NCBI GenBank assembly: GCA_000146465.1
Contig: CP001947.1
Strand: one strand, 5' to 3'
DNA: 64,000 bases
Both the position numbers and the translations under genes were made by a program. Shown here in pieces: positions 4,555 through 43,455 of this stretch; positions within the stretch are counted from its first letter, which is position 1; the number at the start of each line of letters is the position of its first letter. The notes under the pieces were generated by a model that searched no databases, had not been told where the DNA came from, and was given only the letters and a program-made list of their open reading frames with translations.

Positions 4555-6432
4555 ATGTCTGATAAGAATACTTTTTCATCCCTTTTTCTAATGAAACTAA
4601 ATCTTTTTAAAAACATCAAGAGGAAGCCATTTTCGATTGTCGCAATGTCCTCAAATGGCACCACTATTGTTCTTTTCAGGAAGGATAAAACTTTGGAACT
4701 GTTTGACTCCTACACTCTTGTACCATACTTTACTATGGAGTTTGGATATGAAGTTGTGACCAGTAGTTTTGTGGACTTCCATACTGTGGCCTGTGGAACA
4801 GAATGTGGGAAGCTTGTTTTCTTCAACACTAGAACTCTAGACATAATGTATACAAATGTCGATGGTATTCCTTCGAACATTGCAGCAAACTCTTATGGAC
4901 TTAGATATGATCAAAGACTATTTTATTATTCTATTGGATGCAACGTGTACGAAAAGAAAAATATGGATGCAGATCTTGTGTATCGAGGAAACTCTAAAAT
5001 TACATCTCTTTTCCTTTCTCCTGATCAATCGCTGATTATTGGAGATGCCGAGGGAAAGATAAAGATGTTAAGATGTGATAAGATGGTTTCAGAGATCCAG
5101 CTTTCCTCTGGAAAAATTAACATGATATGCCACATCACGGGAAACACATATGTTTCTGTGTGTGATTACGGAAACTTTTACTATTTTGATACAGACTTGG
5201 AACTTGTTCTACAGACAGTTAAAGTAAGAAATAGCCCACTAAATGTGTGTGCATATGTAAATGATAAGCTTCACTTATCTGGTGCCGATTCTAGAATAGT
5301 TGCATTCTCAAGAAATGGGAGGAAGTTTATAAAATCCTATCAGGTTGACACCCACTATGCCGAAGTCAGAAATATTGCTGTGGACAACGGAAGGGTGCTT
5401 ACTTCTGGGGAGGATACAATCATGAGTGTTGTATGGCCCACACCCAACAAGTATCTTGAGAACAAAATATTCCATCGGTCAGTCGAGTTGGAAGTTTCTA
5501 AGGTTAACAAAATGTTTTATATCAACAATAGGTCGTCTATTGATTTTTACTTGCTCGATTCCGACCCGAAGGATAACAACGATGAGGAAACCTCGGAAGA
5601 TCTTTCTCAGAATGATATGGGAATAACCTTCAAGCTTTCTCGATCCTCGATAAAAAATATCGGTTACAAGAGCCACGACTACAAGTACAAAATCAAGATA
5701 TATACAGAAGGTAATGCCTTTTGCTCCTCAGCCCCCGACGACTTTAGTTATCTAGCATATTCCAATTCAACGGAAACAAGGGTTATAAGTCTGAGCCCAG
5801 ACCAGGAAATCAAAGTTAGGAATAGACTTGGAAAAGCTAGCCGATTAATTACGAGGAAAGACTTGATTGTGCTCCAGAGCTACAAGCGTGAAGTTCTTCT
5901 TATTGATCTTAAGACTGGGGAAACCCTTAGAAAGATATTATTTGACGATTATAGGGAAGTGGTGTATCTTGTAGGAGACTTACTAGTCTTAGGGCACTCA
6001 AAAGTTATATATTCGATAAGCGATCCAAGCATTTCATCAAGTCTAGATGTAGAAGGGGAGGTTCTTAATGTCTGTGAGTATGGAAAAGATCATTTCATTG
6101 TGCTTAGTATGGCTAAATCCTTGGAAGCCAAGAAAGAGTATTTCGTATACAAAGTCTCTCTTTCAGACTTCATTGTAGAAAAAATTAAGTTCTTTGAAAC
6201 CTATTCCTTAATTACATCCGTTTCAGTATTGGAGGATAACATCATCTTTTCAAGCTCCAATGCCATCCAAATATTTGACAATGAGATGAGGGAAGAAAGA
6301 TATTCTTTGGGCGCCGTTATATATTCCTGTAAGGCGATAGAAGGAGAGATTATAGCAATTCAGGATTCATGGAACAACATAAGACTTGGGTTGCCGCCAA
6401 GTATCTTTAAAGAAAAATTTTCTAATAAATAA
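4555..6432 (+). CDS. WD-repeat/beta-propeller protein, possibly a nucleolar U3-snoRNP (Utp4-like) component
   Basis: 625 aa with repeated beta-strand-rich WD-like segments. No catalytic motifs. The family assignment is tentative. Confidence 0.35.
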   Translation: MSDKNTFSSLFLMKLNLFKNIKRKPFSIVAMSSNGTTIVLFRKDKTLELFDSYTLVPYFTMEFGYEVVTSSFVDFHTVACGTECGKLVFFNTRTLDIMYTNVDGIPSNIAANSYGLRYDQRLFYYSIGCNVYEKKNMDADLVYRGNSKITSLFLSPDQSLIIGDAEGKIKMLRCDKMVSEIQLSSGKINMICHITGNTYVSVCDYGNFYYFDTDLELVLQTVKVRNSPLNVCAYVNDKLHLSGADSRIVAFSRNGRKFIKSYQVDTHYAEVRNIAVDNGRVLTSGEDTIMSVVWPTPNKYLENKIFHRSVELEVSKVNKMFYINNRSSIDFYLLDSDPKDNNDEETSEDLSQNDMGITFKLSRSSIKNIGYKSHDYKYKIKIYTEGNAFCSSAPDDFSYLAYSNSTETRVISLSPDQEIKVRNRLGKASRLITRKDLIVLQSYKREVLLIDLKTGETLRKILFDDYREVVYLVGDLLVLGHSKVIYSISDPSISSSLDVEGEVLNVCEYGKDHFIVLSMAKSLEAKKEYFVYKVSLSDFIVEKIKFFETYSLITSVSVLEDNIIFSSSNAIQIFDNEMREERYSLGAVIYSCKAIEGEIIAIQDSWNNIRLGLPPSIFKEKFSNK

Positions 6433-7880: not shown

Positions 7881-7901
7881 GAGAATTAAATATAAATTTA
7901 A

Positions 7902-8183
7902 TCACAGACTCTCCATTTCCTTTTCATACAGCTCTTTGAGTTCTTTTTTCTTCTTTTCCTTACACATCTTCTTTTCTTCTTCTCTTTCCTTTCTTCCTGG
8001 AGCTTTTGCTCCGATCTGCCAATACTTTTCTAGTTCCTTTTCCCTTTCCTCTTCTTCCTTTCTTTTCTTTTCCATTTCAGCTTCAAGCTTTCTCTGTCTC
8101 CCCTCCATTTTCTTCTTGTTGTTAAATGTCCGGCTCATGAGGGTAGTCCCCGATGAACTGCTTACTTCGATATTTTTCACCAT
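7902..8183 (-). CDS. small Lys/Glu-rich protein, candidate Lso2/CCDC124-like ribosome hibernation factor
   Basis: 93 aa, extremely K/E/R-rich. Contains 'ELEKYWQIGAKAPGRKE', which resembles the CCDC124/Lso2 'ELEDAYW…GGKAPR' N-terminal helix motifs. ATG verified at 8183. Confidence 0.35.
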   Translation of the reverse strand: MVKNIEVSSSSGTTLMSRTFNNKKKMEGRQRKLEAEMEKKRKEEEEREKELEKYWQIGAKAPGRKEREEEKKMCKEKKKKELKELYEKEMESL

Positions 8184-8210
8184 TCATCCGTGAACAATGC
8201 TCCCGTTACG

Positions 8211-8411
8211 CTACTCCTTGATTTCCTTTCCAAGCATATTTACAAAAACTGGCTGTTCATAGAGAAGTATGTATGTCTCAACACTTTCTTCGACCTTATA
8301 TTTATATTCTTTTCCACCCGCCTTCATTGTTACTGTGCTACTGGTCTTATCATACTCCACCTCCTCAACATCTTCAGGCTTTATATTCAGAGCTTCTATG
8401 ACCACGTTCAT
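8211..8411 (-). CDS. small hypothetical protein (66 aa from first ATG; track start is TTG)
   Basis: MNVVIEALNIKPEDVEEVEYDKTSS… has no recognisable family. Compact spacing between neighbours suggests it is real. Confidence 0.25.
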   Translation of the reverse strand: MNVVIEALNIKPEDVEEVEYDKTSSTVTMKAGGKEYKYKVEESVETYILLYEQPVFVNMLGKEIKE

Positions 8412-8483: not shown

Positions 8484-8987
8484 TTATATAAGTCTAAAGA
8501 AATTCTCTGCATACTCAAGCGGTTTCAGATTCTTTCCCAAAGATTTTCTAGACATCTCCTCGATTAAGCTTTGTGCTTTTCTTATCTTTTCCTGAATACT
8601 TGGAACTGACTCCTGAATCTTAGCTATTTCCTCTGGAATATTGCATCTTTCGACGCGTTTCTTATAGGAAGCTCTTCTTTCCTGTACAGCCTCGCGCATC
8701 CCTAAACCCTCTATCTTCTCTTTTGTCTGCTTAATATGATCTTCAAACACCTCCTGTGCTTTTATTGGCAAGTCCTTTCTCATCAACGCAAGAGAAAGTA
8801 CCTTGAAGTCTTTCTGGTCGTTCTTCTCAGCCAGTTTTTCAATGTTTGGTCCAGGCTTCACAACAACATTCTTCTCTATGGCTTTCCTGAGCAAATTAAG
8901 AAACTTATGATCTTCTTTTTGCGACGGTGGAGCCAACCGAGATATTTGCTCCATTATCTCATCGATATCTCCAATCTCAAGCTTCAT
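8484..8987 (-). CDS. hypothetical K/E-rich helical protein
   Basis: 167 aa, ATG verified. Charged, helical, with no catalytic motifs. Confidence 0.35.
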   Translation of the reverse strand: MKLEIGDIDEIMEQISRLAPPSQKEDHKFLNLLRKAIEKNVVVKPGPNIEKLAEKNDQKDFKVLSLALMRKDLPIKAQEVFEDHIKQTKEKIEGLGMREAVQERRASYKKRVERCNIPEEIAKIQESVPSIQEKIRKAQSLIEEMSRKSLGKNLKPLEYAENFFRLI

Positions 8988-9041
8988 TTCAGGGCTACTT
9001 CAAATTTGTTTTCCAAAGCATTCCTAAGACTTACCCCATTA

Positions 9042-10358
9042 ATGAATAGTCTGAAGGAGTATGTAAAGAACATAGACTTTGGAGTTGTAGACGATCCAGA
9101 AATATTGGATAACGTCTATAACGAAATAGACGGGCAGGAAAGGATACTGATCTTGGATGTCGAAACAACTTATCAGATGGAAAATCTTGTGAGAAGAAGT
9201 AATTCTAGGCAGATACTAGATCTTTTTAGAAAACTGGATATAGAACAGATTATGACTAAGAAGCTGGGATCCAGAGTCCTTGAGGTAATATATGATGTTA
9301 TCTTTGATATGATCTATGTTCAAGGCCAAAGTATTGATGTTGAAGTGTTTGTAAAGCCTGTGGAAGATGTGCTGAAGACCAAGTTCTTCGACACAAATGC
9401 TACACATATTATTAGAAAGGTTTTCCAGCTGGTAAGTGGAAAAAAGATCCGAGGAGACAAGATTCAGTCCTTTAGCTCTGTAGCTCCTGGGCACATAGAG
9501 AGATACAAAGAGACAATCACCGAGTTGATTCCCCGTCTTTCGAAGGAAGACAGTTTTATCACGCTACTGGTATATACTTATTGCTACCGAAGTAAAAGTA
9601 TCATCCAGGAAGTAGTAAAATGCCACTTCACCTGGGAAAAAGCTTGTGACCCGTTGAAATCCTACTTTTTTGAAAAAATAGTAAGGCTGGCAGGAAGGAA
9701 AACAAGGAACTATATCTTTGAAGAAATCAAAGACAAAGTGATGGAAATATGTAAGGATAGATATGGAAATTACTTTATTGGCGAGTTTATTCTCCACCAT
9801 CACGAACAAGCCGATTATTTTTATAAGGAGATAAACTTGTCCGAATTTAGCAGGAATTCCAACATAATCATGAAGCTTACACATTCCCTGATAAAGGCAA
9901 AGTCGTACTCAAATGTCGACAAAATAATGAGGGACTTCTACTTAGAAAACGGAGATGACATTATATCTTGTACATTTGGTGGTGTCGAAGGAAATTTCAA
10001 GCAAAAATATGCTCCGATGCTCTCCGAGCTTATGAAGCTTCCTAATTCACGTAACTACGGGATAAATGCTGCTTTCGGAAAAAAGTTCTGCTCCAGATGG
10101 ATCAGATCGAAAGGAGGAATTGAACTTCTCCAAGGGTATTACGAAGGAACAGACGATAACAGTTCAAAAAAGAACTTTACTAAACGGATTGAAAGACACC
10201 TGCCTCTTATGGCGGATAGAAAGGAGTGCATCAGAATTCTTGAATTTATGAAAGCATACGGATCACAGAGAGCTGGTAGAGAAATAAAGAGAAGACACCA
10301 GCCCGCGAAGAGAGATTTCCAAAGACATCAAAAAGATATTTCAAATTCAGTAAGGTAA
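9042..10358 (+). CDS. Pumilio-family (Puf/Nop9-like) RNA-binding repeat protein
   Basis: Repeated Puf-like units ('KLGSRVLEVIYDVI', 'GNYFIGEFILHHHEQ'). Start moved to the ATG at 9042 to avoid overlap with the converging upstream gene; the track ORF begins at 8736 inside the neighbouring gene. Confidence 0.45.
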   Translation: MNSLKEYVKNIDFGVVDDPEILDNVYNEIDGQERILILDVETTYQMENLVRRSNSRQILDLFRKLDIEQIMTKKLGSRVLEVIYDVIFDMIYVQGQSIDVEVFVKPVEDVLKTKFFDTNATHIIRKVFQLVSGKKIRGDKIQSFSSVAPGHIERYKETITELIPRLSKEDSFITLLVYTYCYRSKSIIQEVVKCHFTWEKACDPLKSYFFEKIVRLAGRKTRNYIFEEIKDKVMEICKDRYGNYFIGEFILHHHEQADYFYKEINLSEFSRNSNIIMKLTHSLIKAKSYSNVDKIMRDFYLENGDDIISCTFGGVEGNFKQKYAPMLSELMKLPNSRNYGINAAFGKKFCSRWIRSKGGIELLQGYYEGTDDNSSKKNFTKRIERHLPLMADRKECIRILEFMKAYGSQRAGREIKRRHQPAKRDFQRHQKDISNSVR

Positions 10359-43384: not shown

Positions 43385-43455
43385 TGCATCATCCGAGAAT
43401 CGAACTCGGGCCAGCCAGATGGCAACCGGCTATTATACCACTAAACTAATGATGC
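43385..43455 (-). tRNA. tRNA-Gly (anticodon GCC)
   Basis: Minus-strand read GCATCAT-TA-GTTTAGTGGTATAAT-A-GCCGG-TTGCCAT-CTGGC-TGG-CCCGAGTTCGATTCTCGG-ATGATGC-A. Cloverleaf with 7-bp acceptor stem, 5-bp anticodon stem and GTTCGATTC T-loop. Near-identical in architecture to yeast tRNA-Gly(GCC). CCA is not encoded. Confidence 0.85.

Follow-up and report, generated by a model that had tools for sequence, protein, structure and literature searches.

A 78-residue Lso2 orthologue with a probable ribosome-binding role encoded on chromosome VI of Encephalitozoon intestinalis

Does a short, lysine- and glutamate-rich open reading frame in a small intergenic gap of a microsporidian chromosome encode a ribosome hibernation factor and, if it does, where does the protein begin and at what point of the life cycle might it act? 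The window, the whole stretch of 64,000 nucleotides that was analyzed, belongs to chromosome VI of Encephalitozoon intestinalis ATCC 50506, and the genes next to the ORF were named by exact protein look-ups. Both the ORF listing and direct reading of the window place a 93-aa ORF at 7902..8183 on the minus strand, a clarification to the original prediction. Read on the plus strand, its ATG appears as 'cat' at 8181..8183; its stop codon is a TGA (7904..7902), and its translation contains ELEKYWQIGAKAPGRKE. The gap holding the ORF measures exactly 330 bp, from the stop of the TPR/APC gene (7880) to the stop of Eint_060057 (8211). Neighbours include Eint_060057 (66 aa), Eint_060060 (167 aa) and, convergent with the ORF, the 460-aa TPR gene Eint_060050, a putative cyclosome/APC protein (ADM11614.1). 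The ORF, its ATG and the 330 bp gap were all found as originally described, whereas the translated length of 93 aa did not stand and is replaced by one of 78 aa. The analysis presented below very likely identifies this shorter frame as the E. intestinalis orthologue of Lso2, a two-helix, highly basic and acidic protein with a ribosome-binding mechanism proposed by homology. The features of the locus are collected in Table 1.

Table 1. Coordinates of the Lso2 locus in the window, with the basis for each feature.
Feature	Position	Strand	Description and basis
Lso2 coding sequence (almost certain extent)	7902..8138	-	78 aa (MSRTFNNKKKMEGRQRKLEAEMEKKRKEEEEREKELEKYWQIGAKAPGRKEREEEKKMCKEKKKKELKELYEKEMESL) followed by the TGA stop at 7904..7902; PF22048, alignment with 6zu5, starts of orthologues
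15 in-frame codons, most likely 5' flank/UTR	8139..8183	-	MVKNIEVSSSSGTTL; without conservation in orthologues
CCC-like (and GGG-like) transcription-start motif	8141..8151	-	GGGGACTACCC; ends 2 nt before the ATG at 8138; putative function
Predicted helix alpha-1, aa 3-44	8007..8132	-	AlphaFold2 (AF2); its start bears K9, K10, R16 and K17
Trp40 codon	8019..8021	-	Invariant Trp of the family
Predicted hinge KAPG, aa 45-48	7995..8006	-	AF2 secondary structure
Predicted helix alpha-2, aa 49-77, basic patch	7908..7994	-	AF2; putative role, by homology to P. locustae
AT-rich spacer of 21 nt; separates the stop codons of two convergent genes, APC/TPR and Lso2	7881..7901	.	Direct reading
S/F-rich 'shadow' ORF, 85 aa, not a gene	7936..8193	+	Without Pfam family; stops in orthologues

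Links between the ORF and the Lso2 family were observed at several levels. When Pfam was searched with hmmscan, the 78-aa form matched the LSO1/2-like family PF22048 at E 1.3e-9 over positions 1-68 of the 69 in the profile; its score was 38.7 bits, and that of the 93-aa form 37.9 bits, against a cut-off of 27. PF22048 was the single meaningful Pfam match of the ORF, and all 10 aligned homologues matched it as well. A phmmer search against all PDB chains returned chain LNN of 6zu5, the Lso2 of P. locustae, at an E-value of 2.3e-9 in an alignment that is ungapped over 75 residues. Moreover, a family-only profile, built from the window protein and nine relatives with P. locustae left out, matched four chains in the whole PDB and none outside the family. 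P. locustae Lso2 was found at an E-value of 4e-19, two yeast Lso2 chains followed with 0.006 and 0.008, and the fourth was human CCDC124 (E 2). The likeness to the CCDC124 motif 'ELEDAYWKD' that the original prediction had pointed out is present in the profile alignment, where this motif lines up with ELEKYWQIG (E 2, not significant alone). Among 1.84 billion representatives, a profile search recovered four genuine relatives of 78-82 aa and one false positive, and fungal or animal members were not reached; because the search stopped short of these groups, the wider link to fungi and animals rests on the Pfam and PDB profile matches. The profile search that had been suggested as a check thus gave a family-specific outcome, with PF22048 above its cut-off and PDB matches confined to Lso2 and CCDC124, and these matches support a locus encoding Lso2 rather than a generic coiled-coil protein. 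With PF22048 as the sole Pfam match over 78 aa, the protein is of the short Lso2 type, lacking the C-terminal domain of CCDC124; of the Lso2/CCDC124-type factor originally proposed, the Lso2 assignment is upheld and the CCDC124 type is not.

A different kind of match was provided by P0016, which lies outside the window. This 419-aa repeat protein carries about seven 'LKDLNKYWSLATKLNS' units ('KYWSLATK') and reached an E-value of 4.5e-10 against the Lso2 profile through a KYW-x-x-(A/G)-x-K core; it was rejected as a relative of Lso2, and repeats of the P0016 type call for caution in the mining of genomes for Lso2.

Conservation was assessed across four orthologous loci, namely the window, a GC-rich Encephalitozoon-like contig (L001), Ordospora colligata (L003-5) and a metagenome contig (L006). 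The Lso2 frame is the sole one of the six frames that is open in all four. In pairwise comparisons of the four CDSs, pN ranged from 0.11 to 0.22 and synonymous sites were saturated, while codon position 3 took 36-50 of the 58-79 differences in each pair involving the window (36/58 against L001, 50/71 against Ordospora), a pattern indicative of strong purifying selection on the gene. Furthermore, the order of the 167-aa gene, the 66-aa gene, Lso2, the convergent APC/TPR gene and a WD40 gene is shared with L001 and three O. colligata assemblies, and in L006 Lso2 directly follows the 167-aa gene. No second Lso2 copy was found within the 64-kb window. The conserved neighbourhood points to an orthologue of microsporidian Lso2, beyond family-level homology, and the check for conservation and synteny in sister species proposed with the original prediction came out positive, with orthologues and gene order found in L001 and Ordospora.

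The 66-aa gene directly 5' of Lso2, Eint_060057 (8211..8411, minus strand), is located on the same strand and, in E. intestinalis, in the same reading frame. It is kept in L001 and Ordospora (42-65% identity, 22 invariant positions) and is missing between the same neighbours in L006; no match to it was found in Pfam or the PDB. In its L001 orthologue (L001:4829-5305, plus strand) a CAG replaces the TAG stop codon of E. intestinalis, and the frame runs on to 158 aa, extending about 200 nt into Lso2 in a different frame. Loss of the stop, a true overlap of the two genes and an error of assembly or sequencing are all possible explanations; fusion of the 66-aa gene with Lso2 by read-through was rejected, the extended ORF being out of the Lso2 frame.

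On the other side of Lso2, the spacer to the APC/TPR gene, which is kept in L001, contains ATTAAA on both strands, at 7885..7890 on the plus strand and at 7902..7897 on the minus strand, where it overlaps the Lso2 stop codon. Polyadenylation signals of the AAUAAA type have been described (PMC2803860), and by analogy the two motifs probably serve the APC/TPR gene and Lso2 as poly(A) signals. With stops just 21 nt apart, the transcripts of the two genes probably overlap at their 3' ends.

Additional observations concern other parts of the window. For Eint_060040 (4555..6432, plus strand), the longest ORF starting with ATG has 625 aa, compared with 613 aa for ADM11613.1 and other NCBI entries; a call of the 625-aa form came solely from a Logan contig, leaving the start codon ambiguous. 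A mechanical ORF of 540 aa (8736..10358, plus strand) overlaps the 167-aa gene on the opposite strand, and because its orthologous called genes (PUF/NOP9-like) have only 415-438 aa, its real start would be an internal ATG near 9040. According to ARAGORN and Rfam, a tRNA-Gly (GCC) at 43385..43455 on the minus strand is the sole RNA gene in the 64-kb window, and no rRNA was found there. A scan for bacterial promoters and terminators, with bacterial models that are not applicable to a microsporidian, found nothing.

Orthologues of the gene have been annotated in related species. In the S1 Table of Belkorchia et al. 2015, EHEL_060075 and EROM_060055 are 237-nt CDSs listed as orthologues of ECU06_0155, and directly upstream of them lie the 201-nt CDSs EHEL_060077 and EROM_060057, orthologues of ECU06_0157 (PMC4589312). 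ECU06_0155, EHEL_060075 and EROM_060055 are located at the start of chromosome VI, 64-72 nt 3' of the 201-nt CDS of the ECU06_0157/Eint_060057 family and on the same strand, and the pair 7902..8138 and 8211..8411 in the window agrees with those CDS pairs in length, order and strand. In the 2015 table these three genes are hypothetical proteins without function or InterPro motif (PMC4589312), and the Ordospora orthologue bears the UniRef name 'LSO1/LSO2 domain-containing protein'. In three recent E. intestinalis assemblies, the accession numbers of the APC protein (KAL7345498, KAL7347446 and KAL7349406) and of Eint_060057 (KAL7345500, KAL7347448 and KAL7349408) leave exactly one number between them. 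Because of this single skipped accession and of the side-by-side locus-tag pairs 0155/0157, 075/077 and 055/057, we infer that a CDS is already annotated at the E. intestinalis site. Lso2 has been reported for almost all sequenced microsporidia, and a literature search that included the locus tags found nothing specific to Encephalitozoon Lso2. The present result is thus a correct call of a gene that was expected and, in essence, already known; it is not a discovery.

The composition of the ORF calls for particular care, since the original prediction had itself warned that such K/E-rich frames are easily spurious. Over the conserved 78-aa part, purines make up 81% of the coding strand and K/R/E/D 62% of the residues, in line with the K/E/R-rich composition first reported; K and R together account for 35% of the protein. 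With such a strand several frames may be open by chance. The reading that the ORF is a spurious low-complexity frame in a purine-rich spacer, and its profile matches a product of K/E composition, is favoured by a large HMMER bias term of 18.6 bits and by exact look-ups of the 93-, 78-, 68- and 57-aa forms, which found no match in the protein collection. Composition-preserving shuffles (n=2000), used to test for a compositional artefact, argue strongly against it: the Smith-Waterman score against P. locustae Lso2 is 172, compared with 61 +/- 8 and a maximum of 111 in the shuffles (z = 14; 0/2000 reach 172), and the 35 ungapped identities over 75 residues contrast with 10 +/- 3 in the shuffles. 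Moreover, the invariant residues M1, N6, R16, K24, W40, I42, G43, Y71 and E74 are not of the kind that low complexity produces, four loci keep the same start, stop and length with wobble-biased substitutions and conserved synteny, and the annotations of E. cuniculi, E. hellem and E. romaleae already contain orthologous 237-nt CDSs. With the shuffles, the orthologues and the synteny all speaking for a gene, the fear of a spurious ORF was not borne out; that reading is effectively refuted and must be considered exceedingly unlikely. The strand assignment could also be reversed, with the S/F-rich ORF on the plus strand as the real gene and the K/E ORF as its shadow. The plus-strand frame is open in E. 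intestinalis and L001, and its apparent dN/dS is low (pN 0.12, pS 0.69) by way of coinciding wobble positions, which it shares with the Lso2 frame and which hence make it look constrained as well. As a strand discriminator, dN/dS was accordingly discarded, the antisense frame looking constrained as well, and because dN/dS alone does not separate the strands, the decision falls to stop codons in the orthologues: the plus-strand frame contains one stop in Ordospora and two in L006, which refute it. The same ORF matches no Pfam family, all sequence-family evidence lying on the minus-strand frame, and it would cross head-on through the end of Eint_060057. The complementary ORF is present and is the shadow it had been taken for; as a gene it is practically out of the question.

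With Lso2 preferred on the minus strand, its start codon has to be placed at one of two in-frame ATGs. An MSRT(F/Y)N start is common to all four orthologous loci, each of which (the window, L001, L003 and L006) has CCCT(C/T) immediately 5' of this ATG. Upstream of this start the sequences of the loci are unrelated: 5' of ATGAGC, DNA identity falls and indels set in, neither L001 nor L006 conserves the extension, and in Ordospora there are in-frame stops just 5' of the MSRT start. In the ungapped alignment, which begins there, Met1 of the Lso2 in 6zu5 corresponds to Met16 of the ORF. For E. cuniculi, a CCC-like signal and 5'UTRs of <7 nt have been described (PMC2803860). Because of the shared MSRT start, the unconserved extension, the CCC motif and the 237-nt annotated orthologues, the ATG at 8138 is taken as the real start, and the real CDS is almost certainly that of 78 aa starting MSRTFNN, with the first 15 codons of the longer ORF very probably untranslated. 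Translation of the 93-aa form from the ATG at 8183 would provide E. intestinalis with a species-specific N-terminal extension that alters the entry of the N-terminus into the mRNA channel. This ATG is in frame with Lso2 without an intervening stop, a GGG triplet lies about 20 nt 5' of it, and an automated gene caller gave the 93-aa form on a Logan contig, L002. Still, the extension is conserved neither in sequence nor in length, the CCC motif abuts the ATG at 8138 as expected for 5'UTRs of <7 nt and so counts against the 93-aa form with VKNIEVSSSSGTTL, the annotated orthologues have 237 nt, and the solved Lso2 begins at the equivalent Met with its N-terminus buried in the mRNA channel (PMC7644102). 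An out-of-frame ATG 4 nt before 8183 also counts against the longer product, which we regard as very unlikely. This out-of-frame ATG (GGATGAATGG, 8184..8190, minus strand) opens an ORF of 21 codons whose TAA lies beyond the MSRT start, and it matters only if transcripts start far upstream. The gene model is settled at 78 aa.

AlphaFold2 predicts for the 78-aa protein two helices joined by a KAPG hinge (mean pLDDT 87, from a shallow alignment of 6 sequences), a helix-hinge-helix architecture as in P. locustae Lso2. A Foldseek comparison of the model with the PDB gave zero matches, which is uninformative in the case of two helices and was set aside. In the P. locustae ribosome, helix 1 of Lso2 leads from the P site to uL5 and, past the hinge, helix 2 occupies the H38A groove in the direction of uL16; K9, K10 and K17 make contact with the decoding centre, R16 makes contact with H69, W40 is stacked on uL5, and the helices jointly block mRNA and A- and P-site tRNAs (PMC7644102). 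K9, K10, R16, K17 and W40 are all identical in the E. intestinalis protein in the ungapped alignment. Across the homologues R16 never varies, and conservation of K9 and K10 reaches 90% or more. Within the Encephalitozoon/Ordospora group, P47-G48-R49-K50 is invariant. W40 is invariant in 10/10 aligned homologues and aligns with the Trp of yeast Lso2 and CCDC124; this family Trp (W40 in P. locustae, W42 in yeast, W39 in human) contacts uL5 (PMC7644102, PMC7392345). E. intestinalis, with one of the smallest eukaryotic genomes, thus retains a conserved Lso2 module with intact ribosome-contact residues.

Because length, fold and contact residues are conserved, the protein most likely has the same role on the ribosome as in P. 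locustae and yeast. [quoted passage not shown] Helix 1 would then cross the P site, Trp40 would stack on uL5 and, past the KAPG hinge, helix 2 would follow the H38A groove towards uL16. Bound in this manner, Lso2 would keep out mRNA as well as A- and P-site tRNAs, leaving a ribosome that is inactive yet quickly recyclable. In yeast and human, Lso2 and CCDC124 stabilise the non-rotated vacant 80S, which Dom34-ABCE1 then splits efficiently, and yeast Lso2 has been described as a factor for recovery, with ribosomes kept in a form that is easily split (PMC7392345); release by splitting of the Dom34/ABCE1 type may, by analogy, apply to E. intestinalis as well.

The stage of the life cycle at which Lso2 might act in Encephalitozoon is a separate matter, and the original description of the protein as 'the' spore-dormancy factor of this genome was overstated. 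Ribosomes from mature dormant spores of P. locustae carry Lso2 at high occupancy (PMC7644102). In contrast, of Stm1, Lso2 and Mdf1/Mdf2, all docked into the 2.7 A map obtained for spore ribosomes of the sister species E. cuniculi, only Mdf1 was identified, and there was no density for Lso2 (PMC8807834). Likewise, spores and polar tubes of S. lophii contain ribosomes with MDF1 (plus eEF2), not Lso2, though lso2 is encoded and transcribed. Ehrenbolger et al. suggested that Lso2 and Mdf1, which both contact uL5, are mutually exclusive and may split hibernation and recovery roles between them (PMC7644102). It is entirely conceivable, if somewhat less than probable, that the gene described here encodes a genuine Lso2 which is not the main storage factor of Encephalitozoon spores, with Mdf1 holding the spore ribosomes. 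Lso2 might then act during sporogony, during germination and recovery, or on a minority of ribosomes, being handed over to or from Mdf1 or priming ribosomes for Dom34/ABCE1 splitting; the recovery role of yeast Lso2 (PMC7392345) fits such a non-storage function, and the gene is nonetheless under strong purifying selection. Apart from the high occupancy in P. locustae spores, the possible removal of Lso2 from Encephalitozoon ribosomes during purification speaks against this reading. More specifically, selection may have kept Lso2 for a step other than storage, be it sporogony, a post-germination phase or an exchange with Mdf1 at uL5 that leads to Dom34/ABCE1 splitting, with an additional 93-aa isoform as a minor variant; we put this forward only tentatively and consider it rather unlikely. 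If true, hibernation and recovery in Encephalitozoon would proceed through two states in sequence. The interest of the locus lies in this point, as the Lso2 gene is clearly under selection, yet the sole structure of an Encephalitozoon spore ribosome shows Mdf1.

Comparison with known systems places the E. intestinalis protein, which most likely keeps the ribosome-binding role, closest to its microsporidian counterparts. The syntenic M896_060130 of Ordospora colligata is 74% identical over the 78-aa CDS. P. locustae Lso2 (6ZU5 chain LNN; Ehrenbolger et al. 2020, PMC7644102) has 77 aa compared with 78 aa here, and the two proteins, identical at 35/75 ungapped positions, have in common the MSRT N-terminus, K9/K10/R16/K17, the W40-x-I-G-A-K segment and the Y71-E-x-E C-terminus. 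They differ from the hinge into the first residues of helix 2, where E. intestinalis has PGRKEREEE, a segment invariant within the Encephalitozoon/Ordospora group, and P. locustae has DESKKQALE; furthermore, of the two it is P. locustae Lso2 for which ribosome binding has been demonstrated. S. cerevisiae Lso2 (6Z6J/6Z6K; Wells et al. 2020, PMC7392345) belongs to the same Pfam family, PF22048, and is slightly longer, with chains of 91-92 aa; recovery from starvation and Dom34/ABCE1 splitting have been demonstrated only for the yeast protein (PMC7392345). Its similarity to the E. intestinalis protein is marginal (E 0.006), and the profile alignment, which covers residues 7-72, includes the shared N-terminal KK..G..RK and the Trp that ends helix 1. 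Full-length CCDC124 is much longer than Lso2 and has an additional C-terminal domain. Human CCDC124 (e.g. 9P9H chain CE) matches in its N-terminal two-helix module, W39 included, with an E-value of 2 that is not significant alone and, unlike CCDC124, the 78-aa E. intestinalis protein consists of the LSO1/2-like module only.
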